A stretch of 64,000 nt of DNA, taken from assembly GCA_964385615.1 (NCBI GenBank), contig CAYLPP010000009.1, forward strand, positions 3,854 to 67,853, given 5' to 3'. Both the position numbers and the translations under genes were made by a program. Each line of letters opens with the position of its first letter. Position 1 is the stretch's first letter. Below the pieces are notes generated by a model that was not told the DNA's origin, made no database searches, and saw nothing but the letters and a program-made list of their open reading frames with translations. Of the stretch, positions 1 to 63,172 are shown piece by piece. Source of the DNA: an uncultured bacterium (lineage in GTDB: Bacteria > Omnitrophota > Omnitrophia > Omnitrophales > Aquincolibacteriaceae).

Positions 1-3000
1 CGCGGGGGATGTCAGTTCCGCTCTGCTTTTGACGGATGCCCAGTCGCTTGATTTTCACGATGCTCTCGATTTTGGTGAAGAGGCGGACCCCGCGCAGTTT
101 GAAGACCTTAAAGAAGCTTACCGGCTGGAAAAGTCGGTCAGCGGGTTTAATAGTAATGTGCTTGTCGAAATTGTTGGGAATGCCAAAACGCTTCTTTTAT
201 GGGAGCTGGAGTTCTTAGGAGCTACTGACATTCGAATTGTTAAAGATCCTGATAATCCAAAAGTTCACTATGTTTTCTTTAAATGGTCTTACGACGGGCG
301 GGAAGAAAGTAAAACGGAGCGGAAATTGAAGTACACCCAGGAGACGGTTCTCGCGAAGGCCGGGGCTTCATTGCCCTATCCCGTCAGTCAGCCGGTTTAC
401 CTGCGCAAGGCTGGGCATCTGTTCGGATTCCCTGATTTGCAATCGAAAGCTGTGGTGACCTTCAGTTCCGGAGTTCGCTTACCGGATTATAAGGCAGTTC
501 CGGGGGCGCAAATCTCGGGGTTCACTTCCGATGAAACGATTTTACCGTCCCAGAGAGATTATGTGAATCTCAAGAACGCGGTGGTGTGGGAAAAAGTCGA
601 AAAGAAAGGGATCTCTCGGGATAAAGTTAAAAATATGGTGGGTGAATGGCTCCGCAAACCCGCCATGCAGAATTTATTTCAGGCTAAAGACAAAGTTAAC
701 GGAACGGAAGCTCTCACGAACGCTATCGCGGCGCTTCTGGCAACGCCGGGGAAAACGCAATTGACGGAGCCTGAATTAGAAACCGTTTTAAACCAGCTGA
801 CTGTCCCGCACCGAAAGTTAGATAAAGGGAAAGTTAAATCCGCGCTGGGATACATCAACACCATTCTTTCCCGTTCGGAAGCCCGATCAGTGGATTTTAA
901 GGATTGGAATTGGCAAACGGGGCAGCCGATTGTTCGTAACGGCCGGGAAGACTTGCTTGTAACCCTGCCTTTGGAAGGGATCCGTGTTTCTTACGCCGAT
1001 CTTGAAAGGGCTGGAGGTTTAAGTTTAACGCTTGGAGCGGTCAGCCGCGCGGGTGCCGTTTTGAAAGTTGAGAATAACACGCTAACGGTCTCGCAGTCTG
1101 ACTCGACGGAGACTTTTCCGGCTCAGTTGTTTGTAGAGAATGATTCTGAAAACAAGGCTGTGATCTTAAAGGGAAGCAGAACGAAGCAGTTTGAGGTTTA
1201 TTTGTTTCAAAGTGATTTAACCCGGCTTCGTGACGCGGTTGAAACAGCTTTCGCGGTTGAGTTAAAAGATATTCCTGGAGCGGATATTCCGGAAATTGTT
1301 AAAAACGGTGAGGGTTTAAACCGCCTGCCTCAGGGGAGAGCGGTTCGGATTCCCTTGGCGGGTTTGAGAGAGCTTCGTTTAGCTGTTGGCGACATGACAG
1401 CCAGAGGATCCACACTGAAATACCTTCTGCTGGATTTAAATACCGGAAGAATCCGGTATTACGGCGTTCTTAAAGATGGAAAGCCGTCTCTTCTGACCTC
1501 CGGAGTGGCTAGTCTTGAGCAAGGAGCTCCTTCTATAGATGTAGTTCAGGCTGATCCGCTTTTTCAAGAAGCTCGGTCTGAACTGGCTTCGCCTGTGGCG
1601 TTAATGAACGCGGATATTGGAAATCCTCATCTTCGGATTCGCCGAGATCAAAGCGCCGTCTATGTGACTGACCTGTCGGAATCGGGGAGCTGGCTGTTTT
1701 CCTCCGATATTCAGACGGCTCTGTCGCGTTCTGAATCCAGAGCGGAACCGGTCGCTCCCGCCGACGCGAAAATTCTTATCGTGGAAGATGAAGTTGAAAT
1801 GGCGGAAGTAGTCATTGAAACGCTGGTGAGGGCCGGCGCTCTGCGTGAAAATATTAAACTGGTTACGTCGACCCGTGAATTTACTTCCGAAGCGGTTTCG
1901 GGAGGATATACGCTGATTATTCTTGATAATAATCTGGCATCGATTGGGATGTCCGGTCTGCAGGCCTTGAAGACCATGAAATCTTCTAAGGTGGAAATCG
2001 GAAAAGATTCCAAAGGGCCGGTGGTTATTTACAATTCTGATGAGAATGTTTCTGAAGGCCGGGCTTACGCGGATTTTGCTTTGGGGAAATTGGCGCGAAC
2101 CGCGGTTATCCAATCGCTTTTTAGCCAGGCTCTGAGAATTGCCGGTGAGCGCCGTTCAGAATTGCGGGTTGGTTCAGATGTTCTTGGGATTGAGGGCTGG
2201 CAAAAGAATGCCGCGGATCTGGTTTCGGAAAGCCGGGGCGCGCCTGTGTCTCGAGGTATTGGCGATTTGCAAATTATTGAAGAAATGAAAACAACGCTTC
2301 AGGTCTATGCGGCTGAGATTGAGCGAGAGGAAGGAAATAGCGGAGCGCCGATACAATTACTGACCGTTGGTTTAGGCCCGGGACATCTTGAAAAGGCCCT
2401 TCGGGGATCTTTCCCGGCTGAACGTTTTCCGATTACTGCGGTTGATCCCGCGTTGGATTCCGTGACTTCTGGAAAGATTACGGCTTCCGTGCCCGGCTTG
2501 GCGATTCTATCCAAACAAGCTGAACAGTTGGCTGTTTCTGACTTGCCGGCTACTCCGGCGGTTATTTACGGATCTTTCTTTCTGGAATATACGGACCGCG
2601 ACCGGACTCTCGAAGCATTAAAAAATATTTCGCCGCCCGGAGCCCGTTACGCGATTGTGCTCCACTACAAGAATTCTCCGGAAGCGCAATACCGCCGGGA
2701 ACTGGTAAGAGAAGAAGCTATTTATGTTCAGTTCCTTCAAGTTGCCTTGGAGATGCTCAAAAGTTCAAAATACAAATCGGCGTTGTATAACTCGATCCGG
2801 AAAGGAGAAATTACTTTCGAGAGGAGCAAAATCAAAAAGGATGTCCAAGAGGTGCTGGGAATGGTGGCTGGTAATGCGGGGGACAGATCCGCACTGCGAA
2901 AACAGCTGCCTGGCGACATTAAACGAGCTTTATCGAATTATATAAGGACTGTGGCGCAATACGCGCCTTTTCTCGCCGAGTCAGACCTTTATCTCCCTGA

Positions 3001-6000
3001 GGGTGTTTTGAGCGGCGACGAGCGAAGCCGCCTTCTTGCCCGTTTAGGAAAAGTTTTCGCGGATGAAGCGGAAGCCAAATCTTATTTTGAGGCACGGGGA
3101 TTCCTTAATGTTAAGGTCGAAAGACGCCAAGTGGGCGGAGAAGATTACTATTTCTTCGCGACTTTTCAAAATCCAGCGCGATCGGAAGTTCGGGCTTTGG
3201 AGCCTAGCCGGCGGGACGCTTTAATAACCGCCGCGGGTTTGGGTGCGTCGGCTCTTTTGACGGCTGTTTCGGGGGAAGCCGAAGGGGAAGAAATTAATTT
3301 GGGAGCCGAATGGGCCGGGGTGATTAAAAGCTTGCAGAGCGGAATCGAACTTCATCGAAACCGGTTTGGCGTGAACGGTCTTCTTGAAAATCAGATGGAG
3401 CCGGGGAGGGACAAGGATATCTCCTGGATCCGCGCGGGGGATATCGGTTTCAGCCTAAGTTCTCTAGTCATTCAGTATCTCAATGGAAATGAAACAGCCA
3501 AGACAGCGGCGCTTAAAATGATTCTTACGGCGCTTCAAACGCATGAACGTCTGGTTAAGGATTTCGGCCTGAAGATTGCCAAAGACGGGACCGCCGGGTA
3601 TGGCGCCGGCTTTGAGGGCGAACCGACAGGGTTACTGCCTGAAGTTTTGGGGCGCGACAAGACTTATTATAAAGCGGAGCCTGCCCGGGAGACAGGCATG
3701 ATCGAGTACGCGGCTTTTGACATGGCCCTGACGCATGAAAGGCTGATCACTTTGCAGGGAATTCTGGAAGATGAGTTAGCAAAAGTAAAAGGGAAGAGTC
3801 CGGCCCGGGAGAGATCTCTTGGCGAAATTCTGAAGGTTCTTAACAGGATTCTTGGCCAGGTTTCCTATCTTCCTTTCATAGACAAAGATGAAAAGCTTCA
3901 TCACAAAGTGCTGGTTTCTTCAAAAAAAGACAAAGAACCCAAGCTTACCGACGATTTAATTGACAACAAATACACGGAAGCCGTGGCGTTTCTCCCTTTG
4001 ATCGCTAGAGGGTATCTGGGGAAAAACGGTGAAAAAATTTGGGATGCCATGAAAGTCGAATGGCAGCTTCTTCCAGTGAGTGAATCGGAGAAAGTGCCGG
4101 TGATTAAAGGCGATAAAGAAGAAACCGCTTGGGCGGCTTTCTACGGGCATTTGCTGGGCGCGGCTAAATCGGCTCCCAAAACTTTAGGTTTGAGCGGTGA
4201 AAATTATACGCGCGCCGCGCTTTACGCCGCGAAAAAATACGGCCACAAAGCGGCGGGAAGCGCTCCTGGTACCGGATTGAAGGCGAATCAGTATCAGGCA
4301 TTTGGTATCCGCAACGCGGACTCGAACGATTTTTCGACGATTCCTTACGGGGTCTTTATGATGGCGCTTTCCGGCCGTGAAGGTGTGAAAAATTTAAAAG
4401 CGTTTTTGGCGGCCGTTAAAGCGGCGGGCGGGCTTTCCGCGCAGTACGGGCTTGTGGATTCTTACAATCCTAAAAATTTAAAACAGAATAACGGCAAGGT
4501 TATTTTGATGAATCAGGTTCTGATGCTGGAAGCTTTGAACGCGGAAAAACTCCGCCGTGAGACGCCTGCCGTGAAATTTACGGAAAAGAAACTGGCGGAA
4601 ACAGATGAGAAAAACCCTGTTCCCAAAAATCTGCTTCCCTCGAACGCCGCTCTTGTTGATTTAACAGCTGTCATTGTAAAAGAAAACAAGTCGGGCGCTC
4701 TGGGGGACGCGAAGCCTCCGGTGATTGAGGAGAAGAAAATGACCGTGAGCTTTTCCTCAGCGAAGGAAGGGGATTTGAGCGGCGCGTGGTTCGCGCTTCC
4801 GGCTTTCAAATTAGACGAAGGCCTCGCTGGACTTGAAGTTGCGCTGGCTGAAGGCGGAAAATTTCCGGCGGAATTAAAAATCGAATTCAAGGATGAAAAG
4901 AAAGCCGTTATTGGAGAAACGATTGTCACTTCTGACGAAATCAAAGCGGGAACCCTGAAGCTGGATATTACCAAAGTGATTCGGGCTTCAAAAGGTAAAA
5001 CCGTAAGCGAGGTTGTGATTTTTGTGACCAAGAAAGGCGAAGGTTCGTTTACGATCAATTCATTGAAGTTGACTCCGCGTTCGGAAGTGCGCACTCTTTC
5101 ATTAAGTGATGACGAACGCGAACTGCTTTTGAGCTTTTACCAGGATGTGCTTGCCAGAGCGCTGGAAATCGCGCGGGCAAAAACGGGGGACGCTTTCGCG
5201 GAAGCTTCCGCCGGAGTCTTTCAGAAGGCGATTAATTCTCTCGATGCGAAGAAAAACCAGCTGACTCGGACGGTTGGAACTTATTGGGCCATGCCGGATA
5301 TTGCACCTGAGGATCTTACGGATGCGGTCCGCGCGTCGGCGGGCAGTAGTAATGATCAGGCCGCGAACCAACTCTACGCGGCGGCTTATGAGATTTATGC
5401 CTCGGCTTACCGAGCGCTCGCCGATAAACGCCCGGTCTTCCGTTCTGAAGCCCGTATGGATTTTGCCCGCGTGGATGTCTTGATGAGGCAATTCGAAGAA
5501 AACGTCAGGGATGCGAGGCGGGCGGCGGAAGAAGGCCGTTTTGACGACGCCCGGAACGGTTTTGAAAAAGCGGCGGATGCTTATATTGAAGTTTCGAAAA
5601 TATTCAGCATGGGAAGGTTTTACGCCGACAAAGCCATGTTTCTGAACTGGCAGGAAAAAGTGGGCGGCACGCCTGTTTTTAATCCGGATCAGTTGAAGGA
5701 CTTTGATTTCAAATTTTCAAATGACCGAACCCGCGATCAGGATATTCGGCGGGTTCTGGTGAACGCGGCGCTTTTGTCCCTGGATGTCATTCGCAAACAG
5801 GGCGGCGGACTGGAGCTGACTGGACGGGTTTATGGCCAGGTCTCCGATGTCAGCGCCTTGAAGCCTGCTGATTTTTCCAGAATCGCGCGGGTCAGCAACG
5901 TGGCTTCGGACACTTACGAGTATCAGCATACACCGACCGGCGAAATTTATATCGTCAAGTTCCTCGGCCCCCGCGCCTTGCCGGAATTATTTGGGCAATG

Positions 6001-7642
6001 GCTGTTTCAGAGACTGGGTTTTTCAACCGTGGAAACGCATCTGCTGAATTTTAGCGGTCAGCCCGCCATCGTTATGAAAAAAATTCCGAATGTCGTGACG
6101 GTTTATGATTATCTGTACAGACAGCTTGGCGATCCCCGCATGTTTCAGAATGAGATTGTCGCAAACCGGCTCTTTCCCTCAGGGTACGCGAATATTTTAA
6201 AACAGTCCAAGCTCGCGGACATTCTAATCGGGTTGAAAGATGCTCATCTTCGCAACGTCCTGCTTCGGGTTGACGCCGAAGGGAATCTTCTTTCCGAAGC
6301 GCCGATTTTTATTGATAAAGAGCGGTCTCTCGGATATCAGACTGATTCAAGAACGGGGCAGGGCATACGGTTTGAACCCTACCAGCCGGCCGTAACACGG
6401 GAAAGGATCGATGCTGGTAACGATACGTTTAAACTGGGGCAGGGAGAACCTTTTTATTACCGGAACGCGAGAGTGAATGATCTAACGGAAACGGCGGAGA
6501 AAATCGCTCAGATTACCCCTGGGGAAGTTGACGCCGCAGTGCGGAAAATCACAGGAGATTTTGGGGGAGATAGGAATGATTTTCTCCCGGATCAGCTTCA
6601 GCCCGGAAAACTGGTGCCCGCTTTAAACACGGCGATCGCTTCCGTAAAGGCAATTTACGCTGTTCGTTCTGAAGTACGGCTGGCGCCGGCAGGAGGCGTT
6701 CAGGAAACAGCGGAAGAGGAAACGCTTCCCGGAATTCCTCTTAGATTTAGCGGTGTAGAATTGAAAGTCGGAATGGGATGGCTGGAAGCTCTTCTGGATG
6801 CCGGGAAAAAATGGCCGGCTGACACTCCGGTTATTTCCGTTTTGAGCGCCGGAATCGCTTATGCGGAAACACCTGCTGAATTGGAGCCGAAAGTTTTGAG
6901 GCTCGGAGATATCTGGATGAATTTGACGACGCCGGAGTCCGCGCAGGCGATTGCCGGTTTGGCCGCGCAGATGAAGGTTTCCGACACGCCTCTGGCGATG
7001 CTGACCGTGACGACGAATGAGCCCACGGATCTTCAGTCGCTTGCGGCCGCATCGATCTTGAATCCGAATTCATTTTCTGTCGTGATTTATCTTCTCCCTC
7101 AGGGAACCGCGCGCAGTGAAGTGCGCCGGGTTCAGGAAAAACTGGCGCCTGAAATTAAAAAAGTTCAGGCGTTTCAGACCACAAGCGGAATGATAGGAAA
7201 ACGCTTTCAGCTGATTGTGGCTCACCCGGCGGATGTGACCGGCCGTGTTCAGGAAGCTTCCCGGATGCTTTTCAGCCAGATGAAAAGTTCGGTCAAGGCG
7301 GTGCAGGACAGTGCGATGGATGCCTTTTTAGAGCGCTATTTCGTTCAGCTGATGATTGGTTCTGATTTGAATGTTTTGCAGGATTTAGTTCATCCCAAAG
7401 CAGCTCGGGTGCTTCGCTTGGAACTTGACGGAAAAGCTGCTGACGGCTCAAGGATGTCATCCGCCGCGATTGTGGTGCTGAGCAAGACAGGAACCGCGGA
7501 GGAGATCGACGCTGAAACCGCGGAGCTTCTCAATAAACGGGATCAGAAGCTGTTTGATATTATTCCAGATAAACTGCGGGCGTGGGAGAAAACGGTCGCA
7601 ATCGCGGTCGAGGCCGCGTTCAAGTTCGCGACCTCCGCTTAA
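1..7642 (+). CDS. Giant multidomain protein, 5' partial (frame open to window start; TTG at 29 is the first possible start). Contains a CheY-like receiver domain (aa ~575-700: ILIVEDE...LIILDNNL...PVVIYNS...GKL) and a PI3/PI4-kinase-like catalytic region (aa ~1965-2110: IVKF...GLKDAHLRNVLLRVDAEGNLL...IFIDKE). The remaining ~2000 aa have no recognisable domains.
   Basis: Continuous 7.6 kb ORF with no stop in frame 2 from nt 2. REC acidic-pocket and phospho-acceptor Asp pattern. Catalytic-loop-like D-x-H-x-x-N followed by LLxxDAEGNLL, close to the PI4K [22 protein letters not shown] block. Confidence 0.6.
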   Translation, partial: AGDVSSALLLTDAQSLDFHDALDFGEEADPAQFEDLKEAYRLEKSVSGFNSNVLVEIVGNAKTLLLWELEFLGATDIRIVKDPDNPKVHYVFFKWSYDGREESKTERKLKYTQETVLAKAGASLPYPVSQPVYLRKAGHLFGFPDLQSKAVVTFSSGVRLPDYKAVPGAQISGFTSDETILPSQRDYVNLKNAVVWEKVEKKGISRDKVKNMVGEWLRKPAMQNLFQAKDKVNGTEALTNAIAALLATPGKTQLTEPELETVLNQLTVPHRKLDKGKVKSALGYINTILSRSEARSVDFKDWNWQTGQPIVRNGREDLLVTLPLEGIRVSYADLERAGGLSLTLGAVSRAGAVLKVENNTLTVSQSDSTETFPAQLFVENDSENKAVILKGSRTKQFEVYLFQSDLTRLRDAVETAFAVELKDIPGADIPEIVKNGEGLNRLPQGRAVRIPLAGLRELRLAVGDMTARGSTLKYLLLDLNTGRIRYYGVLKDGKPSLLTSGVASLEQGAPSIDVVQADPLFQEARSELASPVALMNADIGNPHLRIRRDQSAVYVTDLSESGSWLFSSDIQTALSRSESRAEPVAPADAKILIVEDEVEMAEVVIETLVRAGALRENIKLVTSTREFTSEAVSGGYTLIILDNNLASIGMSGLQALKTMKSSKVEIGKDSKGPVVIYNSDENVSEGRAYADFALGKLARTAVIQSLFSQALRIAGERRSELRVGSDVLGIEGWQKNAADLVSESRGAPVSRGIGDLQIIEEMKTTLQVYAAEIEREEGNSGAPIQLLTVGLGPGHLEKALRGSFPAERFPITAVDPALDSVTSGKITASVPGLAILSKQAEQLAVSDLPATPAVIYGSFFLEYTDRDRTLEALKNISPPGARYAIVLHYKNSPEAQYRRELVREEAIYVQFLQVALEMLKSSKYKSALYNSIRKGEITFERSKIKKDVQEVLGMVAGNAGDRSALRKQLPGDIKRALSNYIRTVAQYAPFLAESDLYLPEGVLSGDERSRLLARLGKVFADEAEAKSYFEARGFLNVKVERRQVGGEDYYFFATFQNPARSEVRALEPSRRDALITAAGLGASALLTAVSGEAEGEEINLGAEWAGVIKSLQSGIELHRNRFGVNGLLENQMEPGRDKDISWIRAGDIGFSLSSLVIQYLNGNETAKTAALKMILTALQTHERLVKDFGLKIAKDGTAGYGAGFEGEPTGLLPEVLGRDKTYYKAEPARETGMIEYAAFDMALTHERLITLQGILEDELAKVKGKSPARERSLGEILKVLNRILGQVSYLPFIDKDEKLHHKVLVSSKKDKEPKLTDDLIDNKYTEAVAFLPLIARGYLGKNGEKIWDAMKVEWQLLPVSESEKVPVIKGDKEETAWAAFYGHLLGAAKSAPKTLGLSGENYTRAALYAAKKYGHKAAGSAPGTGLKANQYQAFGIRNADSNDFSTIPYGVFMMALSGREGVKNLKAFLAAVKAAGGLSAQYGLVDSYNPKNLKQNNGKVILMNQVLMLEALNAEKLRRETPAVKFTEKKLAETDEKNPVPKNLLPSNAALVDLTAVIVKENKSGALGDAKPPVIEEKKMTVSFSSAKEGDLSGAWFALPAFKLDEGLAGLEVALAEGGKFPAELKIEFKDEKKAVIGETIVTSDEIKAGTLKLDITKVIRASKGKTVSEVVIFVTKKGEGSFTINSLKLTPRSEVRTLSLSDDERELLLSFYQDVLARALEIARAKTGDAFAEASAGVFQKAINSLDAKKNQLTRTVGTYWAMPDIAPEDLTDAVRASAGSSNDQAANQLYAAAYEIYASAYRALADKRPVFRSEARMDFARVDVLMRQFEENVRDARRAAEEGRFDDARNGFEKAADAYIEVSKIFSMGRFYADKAMFLNWQEKVGGTPVFNPDQLKDFDFKFSNDRTRDQDIRRVLVNAALLSLDVIRKQGGGLELTGRVYGQVSDVSALKPADFSRIARVSNVASDTYEYQHTPTGEIYIVKFLGPRALPELFGQWLFQRLGFSTVETHLLNFSGQPAIVMKKIPNVVTVYDYLYRQLGDPRMFQNEIVANRLFPSGYANILKQSKLADILIGLKDAHLRNVLLRVDAEGNLLSEAPIFIDKERSLGYQTDSRTGQGIRFEPYQPAVTRERIDAGNDTFKLGQGEPFYYRNARVNDLTETAEKIAQITPGEVDAAVRKITGDFGGDRNDFLPDQLQPGKLVPALNTAIASVKAIYAVRSEVRLAPAGGVQETAEEETLPGIPLRFSGVELKVGMGWLEALLDAGKKWPADTPVISVLSAGIAYAETPAELEPKVLRLGDIWMNLTTPESAQAIAGLAAQMKVSDTPLAMLTVTTNEPTDLQSLAAASILNPNSFSVVIYLLPQGTARSEVRRVQEKLAPEIKKVQAFQTTSGMIGKRFQLIVAHPADVTGRVQEASRMLFSQMKSSVKAVQDSAMDAFLERYFVQLMIGSDLNVLQDLVHPKAARVLRLELDGKAADGSRMSSAAIVVLSKTGTAEEIDAETAELLNKRDQKLFDIIPDKLRAWEKTVAIAVEAAFKFATSA

Positions 7643-9493: not shown

Positions 9494-10248
9494 AAATTCT
9501 TTCTCTCAATACCTGGCAGGAGCGCGGGCCCTGGCAGGAAAGATGGAAAATTACTTTCCGGTGGCTTGAAGCGCATTCCCCCGACTTTTGCGCTTTTCAG
9601 GAAGTTTTTAAAGAATCCTGGGCGCGGGAGATTCAAAGGAAAACAGGAAATAAGTCCCTGGTGTTTTTTCCGGAGCCTTCCGGGCTGGCGATGGTTTCAC
9701 GGTACCCTGTAAAACGTTCGGAAATTTTAAAGTACCAAACTCAGTCTCCGATCGAAGATTATAAAAGGTTCGCGGTTTTTGCCGAATTTGAAACTCCGGC
9801 AGGAGCGGTGTACGGGTTTAACACGCATTTATCCTGGAAGCCCGCGGACTCAGCAACCCGGGCGGGGCAAATTCGTGAATTAATAGACTGGTCTCGCGAA
9901 AAGGCAAATGGAAATCCGGTTTTTGTAACCGGAGACTTTAACGCGTCACCGGAAACCGCTGAAGTCCGGCAGATGACGGAAGCCGGATTCATGGATACAT
10001 TTACGGCGATGAATCCCGGAAAACCGGGATTAACCTGGGACAATCAGAATCCTTACGCGGCAGGCGCCAGCGTGTTTCTCCCTGACCGCCGGATCGATTA
10101 TGTTTTTACCCGTGATTTTATGAAAATCGCGGACTTGGGCTCTTCGGAAGTTGTCCTGAAGGAGCCGAATGAAAACCGGGTTTTTGCGTCTGATCACTAT
10201 GGTGTTTTGAGCGAATTTAAACTCAGGAGGCAAGATGGACGCGGTTGA
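9490..10248 (+). CDS. Endonuclease/exonuclease/phosphatase (EEP) family protein
   Basis: ILSLNTW N-terminus and C-terminal SDHYGV motif of the EEP fold. 4-nt overlap with plsC. Confidence 0.65.
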   Translation: MKILSLNTWQERGPWQERWKITFRWLEAHSPDFCAFQEVFKESWAREIQRKTGNKSLVFFPEPSGLAMVSRYPVKRSEILKYQTQSPIEDYKRFAVFAEFETPAGAVYGFNTHLSWKPADSATRAGQIRELIDWSREKANGNPVFVTGDFNASPETAEVRQMTEAGFMDTFTAMNPGKPGLTWDNQNPYAAGASVFLPDRRIDYVFTRDFMKIADLGSSEVVLKEPNENRVFASDHYGVLSEFKLRRQDGRG

Positions 10249-11356
10249 ATATTCTCCGGAAAAAGCTAAGACATATCAACGTAAGCGTGAAATCCTGACT
10301 CTCCTGCATCTGGTCATTACGCCGGCATTGCTTGCCCTGGTTATCATGACGGGACTGTCCGCTTGGCTCAAAGAAACAGCTCAGGCGGTTTCTCCGTCGC
10401 CCTTTCTTGTTTTCGCGGTTTATTTTATTTTCTACTCGCTTTTTATGATGCTTGCGGAATTTCCGTTTTCGTTTTACAGCGGTTATGTGGTTGAGAAAAA
10501 ATTTTCACTTTCCAATCAAAGCTTCGCGGGCTGGCTTGGGGTGTACTTAAAAAAAACGGTGCTCTCTTTTGTATTTTCACTTTTTCTGATTGAGGGATTT
10601 TATTTTCTGGTCTGGAATTTCCCCAACCGCTGGTGGCTGGGCGCTTGGGGCGCCTTCGCGCTGATCAGTTATTTCATGGGGAAAATTTTCCCGGTTTTTA
10701 TCGTTCCGATGTTCTACAAATACGGGCTGGTTGAAAACCAGGAAGTCAAAGATCTGATTTTAAAACTTGCGGCGAGGTTTAAGATGCCGCTCTCGCAGGT
10801 TTATTCTCTCAACCTGAGTAAAACCACCAAGAAAGCCAATGCCGCTTTTATGGGGCTCGGCAAAACCCGCCGGGTGGTTTTGAGCGATACTTTGCTCGCG
10901 CATTTCACGCCGGAAGAAATTGAAGCAGTGGTGGGGCACGAGCTGGGGCATTGCGTTCACCAGGATATCTGGAAACAGCTAGCTTTGGGTTTAGTGACGT
11001 CATTTGCCGGATTCTGGCTGGTCTTCAAGATTCTGCCATCGGCCGCTCAGATTTTTGGTTTTTACGGTCCGGGCGATATCGCGAGTCTGCCTCTGTTTTT
11101 TTTAATGTTTTATGTCTTTTATCTGGTTTTGACGCCTCTTCAGAATGCTTTTTCACGGAAGGTGGAAAGGGAAGCGGACCGTTTCGCATTTGAGGCTTGC
11201 GCCAAACCGAAAATTCTCAGAGAGTGCCTGGAGAAGCTGGCGAGAGTCAATCTCTCGGATCCTGATCCCAATCCGGTTTTTGAGTGGTTTTTCTATGACC
11301 ATCCTTCTATCGGCAACCGTGTGCGTCTGATTCAGAAATGGGAGGCCGGGCAATGA
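10235..11356 (+). CDS. M48 family zinc metallopeptidase (Ste24/HtpX-like) integral membrane protein
   Basis: Multiple TM helices and a VVGHELGHCVH (HExxH) motif in the C-terminal half. Confidence 0.75.
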   Translation: MDAVEYSPEKAKTYQRKREILTLLHLVITPALLALVIMTGLSAWLKETAQAVSPSPFLVFAVYFIFYSLFMMLAEFPFSFYSGYVVEKKFSLSNQSFAGWLGVYLKKTVLSFVFSLFLIEGFYFLVWNFPNRWWLGAWGAFALISYFMGKIFPVFIVPMFYKYGLVENQEVKDLILKLAARFKMPLSQVYSLNLSKTTKKANAAFMGLGKTRRVVLSDTLLAHFTPEEIEAVVGHELGHCVHQDIWKQLALGLVTSFAGFWLVFKILPSAAQIFGFYGPGDIASLPLFFLMFYVFYLVLTPLQNAFSRKVEREADRFAFEACAKPKILRECLEKLARVNLSDPDPNPVFEWFFYDHPSIGNRVRLIQKWEAGQ

Positions 11357-12477
11357 CGAAGAACGTTTTCTCCGCTTTTCTCGCGATGGTTCTTTTTATT
11401 CATCCCGTTTGGGCGGGGGAGAAAGAAAAAACCAAAGCGGAAGAAATCATGGAGCGCCGTCAGAAAGTCGAAGTGATGGGGTTTTACCTTAAAGACCCGA
11501 AAGATTCCAAGCTTCCTGAGATTCCCATGTCGATTCAAAATTACAATCAGGCCGTCGAGTTTTTTCAGCATCAGGAATATGACCTGGCCCGCCAGGCGCT
11601 CAACGATGCTTTGAAGCAAGACCCCTCGAACTCATTTGCCTATGAACTTTTAGGGGATGTGGACAATATGCAGGAAAAACTTCAGGACGCGAAAAAGAAT
11701 TATGAAATTGCCTATAACCTGAGTCCCAAGGCTGATCTGAAAGAGAAACTCGAGAAATTAAGCGGGGATCAGAAGCTGTCCAAAAAACTTGCTACCTATA
11801 ATGAAGAGCATTTCGTGATTAAGTATTTCAAGAAATCGGATGAAGACAAAGGTTTCGAGCTCCGTGAACTTCTCCGCGCGACGTACGGGCAGATTTCCAA
11901 GGATTTTGCCTACTACTTCAAGAATCAGGTTGTGGTCCTTCTATATGACGAAGAGGATTTTAAAAAAATATCCGGTCTTCCGCACTGGGCCGGGGGGCTT
12001 TATGACGGAAAAGTCCGGATGCCGATGAACCGGAGCGGTTTCAGCGACCTTGATTTGAAGGCTTTGACCGCGCATGAAGTGACGCACGCGTTTATCGCGG
12101 GGATGTCCGGCTCGCGCGCCCCGGCTTGGATTAATGAAGGGCTGGCGCAGTATGAGGAAAATAAAATCCGCCCTATTGATATGATCGTTTTTGAGGCCGC
12201 GATTACAACCGATAATCTCATGCCCCTTCTGATTTTAATGCGTGAAGACGCGGTGCAAAGTCTGCAGGATTCCCTGCGCGTGAATCTTTTTTATCAGCAG
12301 TCTTTTCATTTAGTGGATTACCTGGTTCAGCGCTATGGGATGTTTATGGTTAAGCAGATGCTCGCGGAGTACGCGAAAGGCAAGGACTCTGAAGAAGTGG
12401 TGCTTGAAAAGCTTAAAATTTCAACGGAACGGCTGGAGAAAGAATGGAAAGCCACGTTTACCAACGATACGCTTTAA
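11353..12477 (+). CDS. Putative secreted metallopeptidase, MA-clan (Peptidase_MA_2-like) with TPR-like N-terminal region
   Basis: Signal-peptide-like N-terminus (MTKNVFSAFLAMVLFIHPVWAGE) after a GGGAGG RBS. HEVTH...EGLAQYEE resembles the HExxH...EGLAxY Peptidase_MA_2 signature. Confidence 0.45.
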   Translation: MTKNVFSAFLAMVLFIHPVWAGEKEKTKAEEIMERRQKVEVMGFYLKDPKDSKLPEIPMSIQNYNQAVEFFQHQEYDLARQALNDALKQDPSNSFAYELLGDVDNMQEKLQDAKKNYEIAYNLSPKADLKEKLEKLSGDQKLSKKLATYNEEHFVIKYFKKSDEDKGFELRELLRATYGQISKDFAYYFKNQVVVLLYDEEDFKKISGLPHWAGGLYDGKVRMPMNRSGFSDLDLKALTAHEVTHAFIAGMSGSRAPAWINEGLAQYEENKIRPIDMIVFEAAITTDNLMPLLILMREDAVQSLQDSLRVNLFYQQSFHLVDYLVQRYGMFMVKQMLAEYAKGKDSEEVVLEKLKISTERLEKEWKATFTNDTL

Positions 12478-18162: not shown

Positions 18163-18590
18163 TGCCTTATCTGCTGGGGCTTGATTTCGGTCAGAAAAGA
18201 ATCGGTGTAGCGGTCAGCGATGAATCCGCAAGCATGGCTTTCCCTCACGGTATGATTCCTTTCAACAGCCGTAAGTCGGTTCTGCAGGAAATTCAGAAAA
18301 TTCTAAAAGATTATCCGGCGAAATTGATTGTGGTTGGACTTCCTATGACGCTTAAAGGCGAAATGGGGCCGGCAGCGTTGAAGATTAAGGAACATTTGAA
18401 CTGGTTTGAAGCCGAACTGAAAACTGTATCCTGGGTTCTTTGGGACGAACGGTTAACCACGAAAGAAGTGGAGCGGGTGCTTTTGGCCGCGGATGTCAGC
18501 CGGGATAAGCGTAAAGGGGTGCGTGATCAACTGGCCGCGCAGAGAATTCTGCAGAATTATATCGATTATCAAGGGAATAAGCCCTCATGA
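18159..18590 (+). CDS. ruvX: Putative pre-16S rRNA nuclease / Holliday-junction resolvase-like RuvX (YqgF)
   Basis: LLGLDFGQKRIGVAVSD N-terminus typical of YqgF. Confidence 0.85.
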   Translation: MMPYLLGLDFGQKRIGVAVSDESASMAFPHGMIPFNSRKSVLQEIQKILKDYPAKLIVVGLPMTLKGEMGPAALKIKEHLNWFEAELKTVSWVLWDERLTTKEVERVLLAADVSRDKRKGVRDQLAAQRILQNYIDYQGNKPS

Positions 18591-19864
18591 CCTGTGAAGT
18601 TACTGAATTAAAAAATGGTTTGAAAGCGGTTACGGTGCCTATGAAAGACCGTGAGTCGGCCGCGGTCGCGATTTGGGTCAAGACCGGCGCCCGGCTTGAA
18701 AGCGCGAAGCTTTCCGGGGTTTCTCATATTCTCGAGCATATGCTCTTTAAAGGAACCCGCCGGCGCACGACCCGTCAGATCAAGGAAGAAATTGAGGGGA
18801 AGGGCGGAATGCTGAACGCGTTTACGTCCGAAGAATCGACCTGTTATTTTGCCAAACTTTTGGTGCCCCATGTGCCTCAGGCGCTGGATGTGCTTTCTGA
18901 TATGGTCAATCACGCGCTGATTGAAAAAAGCGAACTCGAAAAAGAACGCACGGTCATTTTGGAAGAAATTAAAATGTACCGGGATCTTCCGTCGCACCAT
19001 GTGCACGATTTGCTCAGTGAACTGATGTGGCCGGATCAGCCGTTAGGCCGTCCGATCGCCGGAACGGCGGAAACCGTTTCCGCCTTGACCCGGCAGGACA
19101 TCGTGGATTATAAGAAACACTTCTACCGGCCCCGGAACCTGGTTGTAACGGTTTCCGGTCCCGTGAAACACCGGGACGTGGTTAAGTTTTGCGAGAAGGC
19201 CTTTGGAAGTCTGGAAGGCGGGCACAGTTCCGGTTTTGAAAAAGCGCGCGTGCATTTTGGCGGGCCTCAGTCGCGGATTCTGGAAAAGCAGAGCGAACAG
19301 ACACATCTGGTGATCGGCTTTCACGGAATTTCACGGTTTCATCATGACCGGTACAAATTGGGCGTGATGAATCTGATTTTGGGCGGAAATATGTCCAGCC
19401 GTCTATTTGAAGAAGTGCGTGAAAAAAGAGGCCTGGCCTATGAAGTTAAATCCGGCTTGAGCCTTTACCATGATACCGGCGCACTGAGTATTTCTGCGGG
19501 CGTGGAAGCTTCAAAAGCTCCCGGCGCGGTGGCGGTCATTCTTAAGGAGCTGAAAAAAATCAGCCGGAACGGCGTGACTGCCGGTGAATTGCGCAGGGCG
19601 AAAGATTTCTTTTTCGGTCAGTTGTGCATGGGGCTGGAAGATACCCTGGACCGCCTGCTGTGGGCGGGTGAAAAAATTCTAGACGGCGGGGAACTGCCGA
19701 ACGCGGAAAAAATTAAAAAAAGCGTCGAAGCGGTTACGCTTGCTGACGTGAGAGCGATGGCCCGGAAAATGTTTCAGCCCGAAGGGATGTATTTATCGCT
19801 GATCGGGCCTGTGGATTCGGGTTTACAGAAAAAAATTAAAACGGAGTTCGAATCGGGTTTATGA
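18587..19864 (+). CDS. M16 family (pitrilysin/insulinase-like) zinc peptidase
   Basis: Inverted zinc-binding motif HILEHMLFKGT (HxxEH) near the N-terminus. Confidence 0.8.
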   Translation: MTCEVTELKNGLKAVTVPMKDRESAAVAIWVKTGARLESAKLSGVSHILEHMLFKGTRRRTTRQIKEEIEGKGGMLNAFTSEESTCYFAKLLVPHVPQALDVLSDMVNHALIEKSELEKERTVILEEIKMYRDLPSHHVHDLLSELMWPDQPLGRPIAGTAETVSALTRQDIVDYKKHFYRPRNLVVTVSGPVKHRDVVKFCEKAFGSLEGGHSSGFEKARVHFGGPQSRILEKQSEQTHLVIGFHGISRFHHDRYKLGVMNLILGGNMSSRLFEEVREKRGLAYEVKSGLSLYHDTGALSISAGVEASKAPGAVAVILKELKKISRNGVTAGELRRAKDFFFGQLCMGLEDTLDRLLWAGEKILDGGELPNAEKIKKSVEAVTLADVRAMARKMFQPEGMYLSLIGPVDSGLQKKIKTEFESGL

Positions 19865-49779: not shown

Positions 49780-49798
49780 CCCGGAGGAAAAAGAGAGG

Positions 49799-58696: not shown

Positions 58697-61600
58697 ATGA
58701 AGAACAGATATCTCATCCGCGTGATTGCGGTGGGAACTCTTTTGACTTTTTGCTCTACCGGCGCAGGCTGGGGGGAACCCGCTCCCTCTGTCGAAGGTCC
58801 GCCGATTCCCGCGTTTGATATTTCAAAATTTCACGTTCCCTCCGAAATTGCCAATCTTCAGCAAGTCCATTCAGCCGGCGCCAAACGCACGGTGATTTAT
58901 GTTCAGGACGCGCATGGAGTTTTAGACGCTCAGCAAAACATTCAAAAGCTGATTCAGTTATTTCAAGATGATTATGGAATCAGGGTTTTCGGGCTGGAGG
59001 GGAGCAAAGAAGATCTTGATCCGCTAATCCTTCGGGCCTTTCCTGATGCTTTCATCCGTGACAAAGTTTTACGCCAATACCTAGACCGCGGAGAATTGAC
59101 CGGTGCGGATTTTGCCGCGATTACCAATCCGGCCAAGTCGGTGTTTCACGGTTTAGAAGATTGGAATCTTTATCAGGAAAACTATCTGGCTTACCTGCAA
59201 GCGTCGGAATTGAAAGCCAAAATTCTGGAGAAAATCGAAATTGTCCGGGCGGATCTCGCGAAAGAGCGTGTTCGGATTTACTCGCCGCAATTCAACCGCT
59301 TTCACGAAAGTGTTGAATCTTTCGAGGATGAAAAGATAGGTCTCCTCGAGCTTCTTAAATTTCTGGGTGAATGCGAATCCGAGCTTCGCCCTGAAGACCG
59401 GAAAATTACTAAAACCGCCGCGCCTCATTTGTTCGGCTTGATGAACGCGGTTTTTAGCTCTAAGTCGGGAGAGGGTGAAATCAACGCGGAAGTGGGGAAG
59501 GTGGCCGAAAAGTTTCAAAATATTTTCCGTTTTAAGCCTAATCTGCAGAAGGCACAGGAGTTTAATACCCGCTATCAGGGGTTTAGAACCGGAGCCGAAG
59601 ACGCCGGAACTTTTTTGAAGTTTCTTGTGGATGCCGGCAAAGAGATCGGGTATGTGCCGGACTTGAGTTTTTCCATGAAGCAACTATTGGGCGAAGCGGA
59701 GACGCTTTCCATGATCAAGGGAACGCTTTTATTTGACGAGTTGGATCAGGTTATCCGCGATTACCGGAATTATTACGCTGTGACTCCGGAAGAGAAAGCA
59801 TTGTCACTAAAGTACGAACGGCTCAGGATTGTTAAAACAATGGCTTCCCTCGAATTAACCCGGGATCAGATGGATGAATTTGAGAAAGAACCTGAGGCCT
59901 ACCTGACGCTTTTTGACCAGGAAGAGGAGTGGATGCAGCCCGCGCTCCGGTTTTATGACGCCGCGCTGAGACGTGATGACGCGTTTCTTAGAAAAATTGA
60001 TTCCATGTTTGAAAAGGAAAAAACGGATGTCATTGTTGTTTTGACTGGGGGCTTTCACTCAGGCGGTCTCGAGCGCAACCTTGAGAAAAACGGCTATAAC
60101 TTCGCGGTACTGACTCCCAAGATGGACTCTCTCAACGGTCAGGAAAATTATCAAAAGGTCATGAGCGGTGACCTCTCTTACAAAGAATTCCTGAATAAAA
60201 GTTTCTATGACGCGTTTGTGAGTCACTCCACCCTTGCTTTGGCCAGAGAGCTCAGCAAACCGGACTTTTTTCAGGCTTTAAAACAATGGCGGGACCAGGT
60301 GATTCGGGAGCTGGCGAATGAAGGCCGGCTGACGCAAGCCGGAGATTACAGCGTCTACATTGACAGGCTCGTTTCTGTTTATAAGGAAAGATATGGAGAC
60401 ACGGAAAAAATTTCAAGAACCGAAAATGAAATTCTCAGGGATATCGAAACTGTTCTCGCGAATTTTAACGAGCGTCTGAAGATTAAAATTCGGGACCGTT
60501 TTCAATCGGAGTTCCGGGATTTCCGTGCTGGGGCTGAACAATTTCGCCAAGCGGGCACCCTGAATTCCGAAAATCTGCAGACACTCTCCGCGCAAATTGA
60601 TGCCCGCAAAGCCGGAGTCAATACGATCCTTCCTCTTGGGAATAAGGAATATGATCCGGTGACCGCTTATATTTCCGGAAAAGTAAATTTGACGGAAGCT
60701 CAGGAAAGGTTAACTCAGACGGCGAAATCTGAGCTCCGCTCTGACGCGGAGTCGCGTCTTTCACGCTTGGTGGGTGCCGTGCGCAAACCGCAGGTACCGC
60801 GTTCCGAAGCCCCCTTGTCTGTCGTAAGCCCGGAACTTGATCCATTGCCTGAAAGTACTTCGACTGAAGCGAAAAGTGCCGCACTTTTTAACTCATTAAC
60901 AACCGGTTCAACAATCACAGAACTTGTTCCCGCTTTTAAAAATATCGGGATTACGGTCCGCGACCCAAAAGATTTGAGGCCTGGTTTCGCCGCGCTCTAC
61001 TTTGAACTGCTTGATGAGTCGGGTGCTCCGATTAGAACGGATTATCGGGGCCTGACGGTTAACGCCCATGTTTTTATTGAGGGGAGTCTGGCAGAAGACA
61101 GTGTTCACATTACCGCCGCGACGCTTGGAGCTCCGAAGAGCCGCGAGCGTGTTCTTATCTCGCTTGAGCTGATGCGTATCAGCACGCGCTATGTTTCGAG
61201 ATTAGGCCGTTGGAAGAACCTGGAATTGACCGCCTTGAATCCGCAAAGCCGGAAATTTCTCAGTGAAAATCTACAGGCACTTATGAAACCTGGTTATACG
61301 ATTCAAATCCCGGAAGACGCTGAAAATTACAAAATTCCGTTTGAGAACATGAATCTCGATGAGCCGATCGCCGTGGCGCGTTCTGAACAGCGGGGTTTGT
61401 CTCTGGAAGACCGTCAGGCTAATGCTGAAGCAGCGCTTCGGACAATCGCGATTGTCGCGACTTCGTCAGAAGGTTCTGGAATCGGAGAAGTTTCTCGCCG
61501 GGCCAGCCAGTATTTGGGGATGCTGGCAAACGCGCCGAATGATGCCGTAAGGCTAAAAGTTTTACCTGGGATTGAAGCTTGGCTTCGTGAACAAAGAGTC

Positions 61601-63172
61601 CAGAATCAGCCCCGGTCCATTCGTGAAGCGCTGATCTTTTTAGGCGGATCCTCAGATCAAAGAGTTACCGGTCTCAACCGTCTTATTGAATGGATTCGCA
61701 TTGACCCCGTTACCCGCCAAGTGAACGCGGGGGTTGAACAGAACCTGCAGGGAATTGAGACAGAAGTCGGCGGGCGGCTGCTGGATATCCTTCTGGAATC
61801 GGTTAATAATCCTGACGTTTTCCCCGCGGGCGATTTGATTCGGGTGCTGGCGGTACTTGATACTTTGCCGCAGTTTCGCAATGCTTTTGCCCAAGATTCC
61901 GCCCGGCTTGATGATATTGCTCAGCAATTGGCGGACGCTTCTTTTGATGGAAATGAAAACGCGCAGATTTTAGCCGTAGCCTTTTCAAAACTGATTTTGT
62001 TCACGGATGCTTTTAACAAACAGAGATCCATCTTTGAAACCATGCTCAAAGTTCCAGCTCAGGATGTTCTTATTAAAAAAACAGGTTCAGACGTCCTCAC
62101 CAATTTGGATGCCCGCGCGAGGTCCGAAGTTCGTCAGGGAACACCTGTGATTGAGCCCTCTGCTTCTCCGGTCTCTTTGTCGCGCTTGCTCGAGGCCCCC
62201 GCGGTACAGAATCTTCTTCGGGAAGGGGATGTCGACGGCGCCCTGCAGAGGGTTGAGACCGCGGGAAATGAGACGGTTGATGGGGTCACTCAGACACTCG
62301 AAGCTCGTACGCGGAGAATCGTCGACGCACTTCGCCAGTCCGGAAACTCCACGGCGGTCATTGGCAATGATAGTTTCCCGGAAACGCTCGCGAGTGAATA
62401 CGGTCCGGTTGTCGAATCAGGGGATATTGACGGTCTGACAGCGGAGATTCGATTAACGCCATATCTCAAATTTACAGCCTCGTTGCAGTCTGAAACGGCT
62501 GTGCCGGTGGATTCAAAGAAAGTAGCGGACTTCAGAGCCCGTCTTTATGCCTATGCCGCGGCAACGCTTAACAAAGATGAAACTCTGGTCATGAATATCA
62601 GCGATAAATCCGACGTTGAGCCCGCTGCCAACGCTCTGAAAAATCTTGCGGCTCCCGAAGTCGGAGTTTTGGGCCGCCTGGTTATTATTTATGACAGCAA
62701 TGTTCCTTTAAAACAAAAACTCTGGAGCTTTATTCCTAACCGGAGCTTTGTTCCCGTAAAAACCGGCAGTGAAGTGGAAACAGTGGCTGAAACCGCGAGA
62801 CGGGAAAAGGGGATGGCCGGAGAGAATGTGCCCATTGTCCTGACGAGTCTTATCGATTTGGAAAAACTGACGGATCCGGCGGTTCGTGAGCTTCTGGCCA
62901 CGCTTTTAAGCTCTCTAAACAGCGGGGATATGAAGCAACTTTTGGTAGAGACTGCGGTTGTTATCGCGATGCGGGTTAAACAGCTCTCTGCCGAGGAACG
63001 GCGCAACTTCAGGGAAGACCCCAAGGCTTTTGCCGGCTTCCTGCGAAAAGAGGGGTTTGAGGACGCGATTGCCGATAGCATCGGCTTCGGCGACAAGGGC
63101 TTCCTCTCGATTCAGATCGGCAAGTTCGTCACGGCCTTCCGCTCAGAGATCCGGGCCGCCCAGTCCGCGTAA
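58697..63172 (+). CDS. Giant secreted hypothetical protein (1491 aa). N-terminal ~450 aa may have a TIKI/TraB/ChaN-like fold.
   Basis: Signal peptide (IRVIAVGTLLTFCSTGAGWG). Two GxxH-type motifs (VIYVQDAHGV; DVIVVLTGGFHSGG) with spacing reminiscent of the TraB/GumN/ChaN superfamily. The remaining ~1000 aa are unrecognised. Confidence 0.55.
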   Translation: MKNRYLIRVIAVGTLLTFCSTGAGWGEPAPSVEGPPIPAFDISKFHVPSEIANLQQVHSAGAKRTVIYVQDAHGVLDAQQNIQKLIQLFQDDYGIRVFGLEGSKEDLDPLILRAFPDAFIRDKVLRQYLDRGELTGADFAAITNPAKSVFHGLEDWNLYQENYLAYLQASELKAKILEKIEIVRADLAKERVRIYSPQFNRFHESVESFEDEKIGLLELLKFLGECESELRPEDRKITKTAAPHLFGLMNAVFSSKSGEGEINAEVGKVAEKFQNIFRFKPNLQKAQEFNTRYQGFRTGAEDAGTFLKFLVDAGKEIGYVPDLSFSMKQLLGEAETLSMIKGTLLFDELDQVIRDYRNYYAVTPEEKALSLKYERLRIVKTMASLELTRDQMDEFEKEPEAYLTLFDQEEEWMQPALRFYDAALRRDDAFLRKIDSMFEKEKTDVIVVLTGGFHSGGLERNLEKNGYNFAVLTPKMDSLNGQENYQKVMSGDLSYKEFLNKSFYDAFVSHSTLALARELSKPDFFQALKQWRDQVIRELANEGRLTQAGDYSVYIDRLVSVYKERYGDTEKISRTENEILRDIETVLANFNERLKIKIRDRFQSEFRDFRAGAEQFRQAGTLNSENLQTLSAQIDARKAGVNTILPLGNKEYDPVTAYISGKVNLTEAQERLTQTAKSELRSDAESRLSRLVGAVRKPQVPRSEAPLSVVSPELDPLPESTSTEAKSAALFNSLTTGSTITELVPAFKNIGITVRDPKDLRPGFAALYFELLDESGAPIRTDYRGLTVNAHVFIEGSLAEDSVHITAATLGAPKSRERVLISLELMRISTRYVSRLGRWKNLELTALNPQSRKFLSENLQALMKPGYTIQIPEDAENYKIPFENMNLDEPIAVARSEQRGLSLEDRQANAEAALRTIAIVATSSEGSGIGEVSRRASQYLGMLANAPNDAVRLKVLPGIEAWLREQRVQNQPRSIREALIFLGGSSDQRVTGLNRLIEWIRIDPVTRQVNAGVEQNLQGIETEVGGRLLDILLESVNNPDVFPAGDLIRVLAVLDTLPQFRNAFAQDSARLDDIAQQLADASFDGNENAQILAVAFSKLILFTDAFNKQRSIFETMLKVPAQDVLIKKTGSDVLTNLDARARSEVRQGTPVIEPSASPVSLSRLLEAPAVQNLLREGDVDGALQRVETAGNETVDGVTQTLEARTRRIVDALRQSGNSTAVIGNDSFPETLASEYGPVVESGDIDGLTAEIRLTPYLKFTASLQSETAVPVDSKKVADFRARLYAYAAATLNKDETLVMNISDKSDVEPAANALKNLAAPEVGVLGRLVIIYDSNVPLKQKLWSFIPNRSFVPVKTGSEVETVAETARREKGMAGENVPIVLTSLIDLEKLTDPAVRELLATLLSSLNSGDMKQLLVETAVVIAMRVKQLSAEERRNFREDPKAFAGFLRKEGFEDAIADSIGFGDKGFLSIQIGKFVTAFRSEIRAAQSA

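Follow-up and report, generated by a model that had tools for sequence, protein, structure and literature searches.

The stretch of DNA considered here, hereafter the window, comprises 64,000 nucleotides (nt) of contig CAYLPP010000009.1 from an uncultured bacterium of the phylum Omnitrophota and opens with the C-terminal part of a giant modular protein, along which a short peptide motif, RSE[VA]R, recurs. An earlier note on this DNA had reported six such peptides in one giant open reading frame (ORF), and all six are indeed present in its single frame upon translation, i.e., RSEAR twice and RSEVR four times, together with two variant sites of the same frame that the note had overlooked, namely RSESR at nt 1727 and RSELR at nt 2153. 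This motif is real, specific to a family of giant proteins and located at the borders of their modules, where it is conserved across the phylum while its flanks and the neighbouring modules change. The ORF was listed by program as 29..7642 but its frame is open from nt 2, and it is a member of the family whose start lies upstream of the window. It is organised as follows:

2..7642, + strand: giant modular protein, C-terminal 2,546 codons, with no in-frame stop from nt 2, N-terminus upstream of the window and end ...KFATSA*
872..886, + strand: junction motif RSEAR, closing module A
1727..1741, + strand: variant junction motif RSESR, immediately N-terminal to the receiver domain
1772..2035, + strand: domain like the receivers of response regulators (Pfam PF00072, under the gathering score, with E 3.9e-6 when the module is scanned alone)
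2153..2167, + strand: variant junction motif RSELR, immediately C-terminal to the receiver domain
2168..3178, + strand: methyltransferase-like module by a weak match only (Methyltransf_23, E 0.024)
3179..3193, + strand: junction motif RSEVR, preceding module C, in a region with a predicted local distance difference test (pLDDT) score <50
3194..3286, + strand: twin-arginine-signal-like segment SRRDALITAAGLGASALLTAVSG, directly after the motif, with RRxF(L) signals in homologous modules
3293..5077, + strand: module C, folded body, with a barrel of the (alpha/alpha)6 type as in beta-1,2-glucanases and then a beta-sandwich resembling a carbohydrate-binding module (CBM) at nt 4691-5077
5078..5092, + strand: junction motif RSEVR, directly after the last beta-sandwich strand, at a site kept in relatives
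5093..5440, + strand: helical module D, 116 amino acids (aa), with no family match
5441..5455, + strand: junction motif RSEAR, between modules D and E
5456..6664, + strand: module E, a helical region and a kinase-like domain (HipA_C faint, E 0.068; pattern LKDAHLRNVLL...IDKERSLG recognised by eye)
6665..6679, + strand: junction motif RSEVR, preceding the terminal module and aligned with RSEVR at aa 5810 of the relative P0001
6680..7639, + strand: terminal module, a homolog of the last 340 aa of P0001 (30% identity), ending ...TSA
7112..7126, + strand: motif RSEVR within the terminal module, with no motif at the aligned place in P0001 (RSEAR lies elsewhere in the P0001 module)

In the giant protein, the six RSE[VA]R sites stand against 0.008 expected from its own composition (Poisson tail ~3e-16) and the eight sites, variants included, against ~0.04, while the four copies of RSEVR exceed the count of the most frequent 5-mer in 300/300 residue shuffles. 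Elsewhere in the six frames of the 64 kb, RSE[VA]R occurs only twice, at nt 62120 in a second ORF of the family and at nt 8840 in a non-coding minus frame. Common bacterial housekeeping functions, e.g., TrpBA, ArgRS, MiaA, NadE, and PlsC, make up the remaining 39 plausible window proteins (14,487 aa), and these contain no RSE.R at all vs. 0.24 expected, so that the motif is not a compositional effect of the genome; plain RSE is found in them five times for 3.9 expected, i.e., at chance rate. BLASTP of the giant protein against itself returned no internal repeats and the motifs are thus isolated, lying outside duplicated domains, which agrees with the earlier view that no recent DNA duplication is involved. 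The DNA at the window sites differs as well, as had been noticed, with Ser encoded by TCG, TCT, or AGT and Arg by CGT, CGA, CGC, or CGG; as no fixed DNA word is present, an internal ribosome-binding or RNA signal was dropped as a candidate.

The second family member of the window is complete and lies 51 kb downstream of the giant ORF. With 1,491 aa, it is small for the family and carries three motifs, namely RSEQR, RSEVR, and RSEIR:

58697..63172, + strand: second, complete family member, 1,491 aa, with an N-terminal hydrophobic helix, the conserved N-terminal domain, further modules and the end FRSEIRAAQSA*
58697..60397, + strand: conserved N-terminal domain (aa 1-567), with TraB/TIKI-like signatures and an alpha/beta core into which a large helical segment is inserted
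60725..60739, + strand: near-motif KSELR, outside the R-x-E-x-R core
61379..61393, + strand: junction motif RSEQR
62120..62134, + strand: junction motif RSEVR
63140..63154, + strand: RSEIR, six residues from the C-terminus, i.e., the motif and a short tail ending in Ala

Relatives were recovered by several routes differing in sensitivity. Word-indexed protein searches with the whole giant protein or with module C alone gave zero matches, which reflects a sensitivity limit since an exhaustive HMMER search with aa 1040-2239 later gave 27 cluster representatives, mostly of 2,000-7,400 aa (lengths include 6,150, 7,439, 7,111, 4,675, 4,465, and 3,718 aa). Exact-sequence look-up of two window proteins retrieved no record, and the leading 824 aa of the giant protein had zero matches when genomes were scanned. 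Homology goes by module, in that matches span query residues ~10-650 or ~780-1180, with ends coinciding with motif sites. The relatives are likewise rich in motifs, e.g., P0007 has 18, P0001 has 16, P0014 has 9 and both P0009 and P0010 have 7, for ~0.1 expected in each. A scan with the conserved N-terminal domain, limited to one genome per species, gave 109 relatives, of which 80 loci were kept (L001-L080); nearly all belong to metagenome-assembled genomes (MAGs) of Omnitrophota or to unclassified MAGs, a single genome having as many as five paralogs. The closest matches to the domain copy of the window are 39-43% identical, which makes an Omnitrophota source of this DNA very probable. The family is a large, paralogous and undescribed group of giant proteins, found almost only in Omnitrophota. 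Complete members follow one plan, namely (i) an N-terminal hydrophobic helix, (ii) a conserved domain of ~500 aa, (iii) a variable run of modules, and (iv) in nearly every case a C-terminal Ala, and the N-terminal domain is present in all complete motif-bearing proteins (11/11).

Across these loci, 90 ORFs with the N-terminal domain (245,058 aa) contain 461 motifs vs. 25 expected, an 18-fold excess, with a median motif-to-motif distance of 332 aa, whereas 303 other ORFs of the same loci contain 16 vs. 12.9 expected, those with two or more being mostly N-truncated family members ending -SA or -AA. The earlier note had proposed that the density of the motif in unrelated proteins and its conservation in relatives be checked: no enrichment appears in either the 39 window proteins or these 303 ORFs, and in relatives the motif stays at the boundaries projected for a given module, also where a different protein has this module at another place. 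Family-wide, the invariant core is R-x-E-x-R and the family form R-[STAP]-E-x-R, position 2 of the 461 motifs being S (344), A (74), P (27), or T (16) and position 4 aliphatic for the most part (led by L with 125, M with 82, V with 79, A with 51, and T with 37). RSE[VA]R is the local dialect, i.e., that of this genome, of R-[STAP]-E-x-R.

The suggestion that the motifs fall near domain boundaries is borne out by projected module ends, the ends of BLAST blocks, the bracketing of the receiver domain and an AlphaFold model. For module C (nt 3179-5078), the motif occurs at or a few residues from the projected ends in at least nine proteins with identities of 26-50%: P0001, P0002, and P0014 have it at either end, P0004, P0008 (RPEVR), P0010, P0011, and P0013 at the C-terminal end, and P0015 (RAETR) at the N-terminal one, and this although the module sits at very different places in the relatives. 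More generally, 25% of BLAST blocks start and 37% end within 10 aa of a motif, vs. 5% for random positions, and only 31 of 271 blocks cross one. The window giant protein and its closest relative, P0001, have three blocks in common, which differ in order and each end at a motif; likewise, the last ~95 aa of module A, which ends at RSEAR (nt 872), match a P0001 segment that ends in RSELR, and the Pfam receiver domain is flanked by RSESR and RSELR. In the AlphaFold model of module C and its flanks (11-sequence alignment, pLDDT 81), residues 60-654 are folded and R655-S-E-V-R659 follows directly after the last strand, the pLDDT falling from ~90 to <50 at this downstream motif, and confidence is low around the upstream motif as well. 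Composition at the flanks is that of linkers, with an excess of Pro, Ser, Ala, and Thr ahead of the motif and, past it, of Ser, Thr, and Ala, then acidic residues.

As for the modules themselves, Pfam, NCBIfam, and PDB sequence searches with the whole window proteins found only the weak receiver domain, and three modules of the giant protein have no family match. Module E has homologs in at least ten other proteins. The body of module C resembles known structures (8xuj, E 1.4e-13; 5gzk), and its sandwich is like the CBM11 structure 1v0a. At the place of the twin-arginine-signal-like segment, clearer signals, with RRxFL, a hydrophobic stretch and AxA, are present in P0001, P0002, P0010, P0014, P0015, and P0021, and the Pfam TAT_signal model falls just below threshold in three of seven module C homologs. 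Since this signal-bearing module is flanked by receiver, methyltransferase-like and kinase-like modules, an apparently exported enzyme is embedded among modules of cytoplasmic type. Beta-1,2-glucans are periplasmic glucans of Gram-negative bacteria; as a speculation, the glucanase-like enzyme would fit an attack on the envelope of another cell.

Dialects of the motif are protein-specific, as exemplified by RTEMR seven times in L021, RAExR ten times in L072, RSELR seven times in L039 and RPExR in L038 and L040. Position 4 varies less inside a given protein than between the paralogs that one genome encodes, with 104 same-residue pairs vs. 80.9 after shuffling, a value reached by only 2 of 5000 shuffles. 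The C-terminus is also characteristic: Ala ends 19 of 23 complete members encoded at the loci (-AA in 13, -SA in 5), as well as the two window proteins and every complete P-protein. In six complete members, the very end is formed by the motif and a short tail, e.g., RSEVRKAA*, RAEVRKAA* or, in the window, RSEIRAAQSA*. An iterated search for a common C-terminal domain found the terminal module of the giant protein to be alike only in P0001, with only the last helix and the terminal Ala family-wide; this Ala-ending C-terminus could be a recognition tail. In the L021:9965 ORF, the linkers at aa 1834-1855 and 2308-2371 consist of tandem 21-aa repeats, PVTDV[AT]GLHKxFxSLDRTEMR, each ending in the junction motif; if these sites are cut, 21-residue peptides would be released.

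At the codon level, 262 RSExR sites use CGY for the first Arg in 80% of cases vs. 42% in the background of the same proteins and TCN for Ser in 96% vs. 68%, while Glu and the fifth-position Arg follow background usage. Both Ser codon families are present and position 4 is variable, from which it follows that selection acts on the peptide, yet the bias at positions 1 and 2 means that the signal is not purely protein-level. The reading of the earlier note, a short linear motif at domain boundaries under protein-level selection, is supported in every part open to a test, with this bias as a reservation.

A candidate for a reader of the motif is found in the conserved N-terminal domain, which likely belongs to the TraB/TIKI superfamily as judged from sequence signatures. 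In a 12-sequence alignment, H73, E101, R426, and H454 are invariant, the conserved signatures being D71-A-H73, E101, R426-D427, and G451-G-F-H454, with D71 being usually Asp and replaced by N, T, or E in 3 of the 12 sequences. The order required for this superfamily, i.e., His...Glu...Arg...His with two His motifs of the GxxH type, is present. The superfamily includes sequence-specific endopeptidases with a 2His/2Glu arrangement, and in one member, RRSP, Glu lies 28 residues past the first His (H3902/E3930) (PMC6254334); the His-to-Glu spacing of the N-terminal domain is also 28 residues. The AlphaFold model (pLDDT 85) has six strands with flanking helices, the core being split by a helical insert of ~280 residues. 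With this model, Foldseek gave no significant match, although the weak ones include two entries of Bcr135, a protein of the Tiki superfamily, 3b55 being ranked fifth (probability 0.18) and 2rad eleventh (0.08). Pfam Cofac_haem_bdg (ChaN PF04187, Tiki superfamily) matched 5 of 10 insert-deleted cores at E 0.001-0.12, below the gathering score. By hhalign, a single sequence of PrgY from pCF10, annotated in its record as a TraB/GumN family protein, scored a probability of 30% with the four signatures in register with GTAH, LE, ERD, and GQAH, and a TraB alignment scored 66% (E 5.5e-5) over 52 columns in the C-terminal half of the domain. PDB profile searches with the domain, insert in or out, returned spurious matches only.

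Taken together, we lean towards regarding these proteins as polyproteins cut at the motif, letting modules with different destinations separate. The enrichment of the motif, its boundary position and the signal-bearing module amid cytoplasmic-type modules count in favour of this polyprotein reading, as do the C-termini that mimic the motif followed by a short tail. R-[S/T/A/P]-E-x-R would be the recognition site of a site-specific endopeptidase, and cleavage in disordered linkers rich in Pro, Ser, Ala, and Thr and in acidic residues would free the modules. The best candidate for this endopeptidase would be the protein's own N-terminal TraB/TIKI-like domain: protein-specific dialects and the presence of that domain in 11 of 11 complete motif-bearing proteins count for a reader encoded in cis, but its identity as the protease cutting the protein, with a hypothetical activity, can be held only tentatively. 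Regarding the mechanism, Ser-dependent autoproteolysis or phosphorylation as a general mechanism is out, for Ala or Pro replaces Ser throughout whole proteins (L072, L038, and L040). The N-end rule was uninformative as to the scissile bond, hydrophobic residues being depleted at every flanking position.

Several points weigh against this reading. We infer everything beyond the position and conservation of the motif. The motif sites within the terminal module are not conserved in position between the window protein and P0001, and Pfam TAT_signal has no match on the window copy of the twin-arginine-like segment; besides, an internal twin-arginine segment can function uncleaved, as in the Rieske proteins of actinobacteria. 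For the candidate protease, assignment to TIKI/TraB is sub-threshold in every single test, the superfamily also holds esterases and haem-binding proteins, and the N-terminal hydrophobic helix could place the domain across the membrane from some of the modules. We know of no protease with R-S-E-x-R specificity. Finally, P0016 and P0020 possess the N-terminal domain, a kinase-like module and many hydrophobic segments with zero motifs; these may represent an unprocessed or differently processed branch.

Among the alternatives, an uncut motif that serves for docking or modification is a possibility to be taken seriously, if clearly a less probable one: a partner, be it part of a secretion or chaperone system, an enzyme of modification or the protein's own N-terminal domain, would bind every linker, the modules remaining as beads on a string. 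A strict five-residue pattern in disordered linkers fits any sequence-specific reader, just as protein-specific dialects fit co-evolution with any reader encoded in cis, and the tandem RTEMR repeats of L021 would give multivalent binding. Docking nonetheless leaves unexplained both the signal-bearing exported enzyme among cytoplasmic-type modules and the C-termini mimicking the motif with its short tail; as to modification, phosphorylation of Ser is not general, given its replacement by Ala or Pro throughout some proteins. It is improbable that the motif is mainly a recombination junction, i.e., coding microhomology for module swaps among paralogs with little function for the peptide, in the manner of VENN and DPxGL in polymorphic toxins. 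Modules are clearly shuffled at the motif and its first two positions show a nucleotide-level bias (CGY, TCN); still, the element is only 15 nt long with a free fourth codon and with Glu and the last Arg at background codon use, the six window sites have no fixed DNA word, and lineages that differ in codons and dialects retain the same residues, for which selection must act on the peptide. Such a role is in any case compatible with cleavage and need not replace it. More improbable still is a passive structural linker, e.g., a helix cap or salt-bridged turn reused as a good domain separator: the location at domain edges, in regions of linker composition, is as expected, but passive linkers would not hold Arg, Glu, and Arg invariant phylum-wide amid varying surroundings, the region of the motif is predicted disordered and the motif is not found in other multidomain proteins of the same genomes. 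Recurrence by chance or amino-acid composition, for which only the general abundance of R, S, and E could speak, can practically be set aside in view of the observed and expected counts above, the shuffles, the zero in the remaining window proteome and the family-wide excess.

Coming back to the polyprotein reading, its most far-reaching form is a rather doubtful proposition, namely that each Omnitrophota lineage encodes dozens of self-processing multi-effector polyproteins, in which an N-terminal TraB/TIKI-like endopeptidase would cut its own chain, the dialects would co-evolve with the protease, and kinase-like, methyltransferase-like, Nudix-like, and signal-bearing beta-1,2-glucanase cargo would be freed, the last possibly to the periplasm, a common C-terminal tag being kept. 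Omnitrophota are thought to be host-dependent or predatory nanobacteria, and very long proteins are a hallmark of the phylum, for which the junction motif provides a concrete and testable rule. In practice, giant proteins can be divided at the motif into modules before their structures are predicted and annotated, proteomics is given exact termini to expect, and a candidate protease is named together with four residues. If cleavage is true, it would amount to a widespread cellular polyprotein strategy with interchangeable cargo and to a new substrate specificity in the TraB/TIKI superfamily, the bacterial members of which are poorly understood; if refuted, the motif would still be the best available marker of module borders and exchange.

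In the surroundings of the two genes, peptidase genes are present downstream of the giant gene, at 10235-12477 and 18587-19864 (+ strand), encoding M48, an MA-clan peptidase with tetratricopeptide (TPR) repeats, and M16. A phage origin was dropped as the neighbours are housekeeping genes. Nearly all long ORFs of window positions 1-54000 are on the + strand, and the guanine-cytosine (GC) skew is positive throughout the window, with the cumulative skew rising steadily, both of which suggest a single replichore with strong gene co-orientation. A 967-aa ORF at 49715-52618 (+ strand) combines a transaldolase domain and a phosphoglucose isomerase domain in one protein.

With respect to known systems, C-terminal sorting signals (LPXTG, PEP-CTERM, GlyGly-CTERM) consist, at the very C-terminus, of a motif, then a hydrophobic helix, then a basic tail, a plan not followed here, where the motifs are internal with acidic, Pro/Thr-rich linkers and where only 3-5 residues, the last an Ala, come after the terminal copies. 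Polymorphic toxins (VENN of CdiA, DPxGL of Rhs) likewise have a short conserved peptide at the border where variable modules are exchanged, which in Rhs is also an autoproteolytic site; they differ by a single border per protein, between constant body and toxin tip, vs. up to 18 borders between many modules here, and no immunity gene pattern was seen. From the same phylum and also encoded by very long ORFs, the Archaeovorin- and Dockerin-type giant proteins exceed 30,000 aa, with C39 and S8 domains as proposed proteases, and are suspected to undergo post-translational cleavage into several products at points stated to be unknown (West-Roberts et al., 2023, 10.1101/2023.11.21.568195). No mention of the motif was found in the literature on Omnitrophota giant proteins, including that study and a 2026 Omnitrophota preprint, and a literature search for the peptide strings gave noise only.

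The N-terminal domain is itself comparable to the TraB/PrgY/TIKI proteins (TraB PF01963, ChaN PF04187; TIKI1/2, RRSP, and erythromycin esterases), with which it has in common a predicted alpha/beta core, two xxxH motifs, Glu 28 residues past the first His and Arg-Asp. It differs from them by the helical insertion of ~280 residues, by the lack of any curated model reaching threshold and by its fusion to kilobases of cargo, which is undescribed for TraB.

In viral polyproteins, i.e., those processed by picornavirus 3C (Q/E-G/S) or by phage prohead proteases (after x-x-E), a short consensus recurs at the borders of unrelated mature proteins of one ORF, and in the Omnitrophota family, too, units that fold independently are bordered by one short consensus. 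The viral protease is encoded in the same ORF and the site consensus varies between lineages, co-varying with the protease, for which the Omnitrophota family has a candidate. The differences are a cellular chromosome with housekeeping neighbours, many paralogs per genome, shuffled modules and another site sequence. If the self-processing reading is true, this would be a bacterial polyprotein system as general as that of RNA viruses, and the missing cleavage rule for the giant proteins of Omnitrophota would be supplied.

In toxins of the MARTX type (multifunctional autoprocessing repeats-in-toxin), the linkers between effectors are cut by a protease domain of the same protein, freeing each module (PMC6315884), and these toxins can carry the TIKI-superfamily endopeptidase RRSP (PMC6254334). 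MARTX toxins, e.g., Vibrio RtxA1, which are secreted, share with the Omnitrophota proteins one very large polypeptide with conserved ends and variable, unrelated modules in between, the MARTX set of effectors being strain-specific. Pfam and NCBIfam scans of both window proteins found neither repeats-in-toxin (RTX) nor glycine-rich repeats, and Pfam found no Peptidase_C80 or any other protease family in the window proteins, the giant protein being covered for its window-encoded part; as neither RTX repeats nor the cysteine protease domain, which in MARTX is activated by inositol hexakisphosphate, were found, the family is not a member of MARTX. The linkers of MARTX are cut after Leu with no fixed five-residue motif. 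The junction here is a strict R-small-E-x-R and the candidate protease is N-terminal and TraB/TIKI-like rather than a cysteine protease domain, the hosts being Omnitrophota instead of Vibrio and relatives. MARTX toxins are nevertheless the closest analogue in how the Omnitrophota family, with its predicted cleavage, would work.

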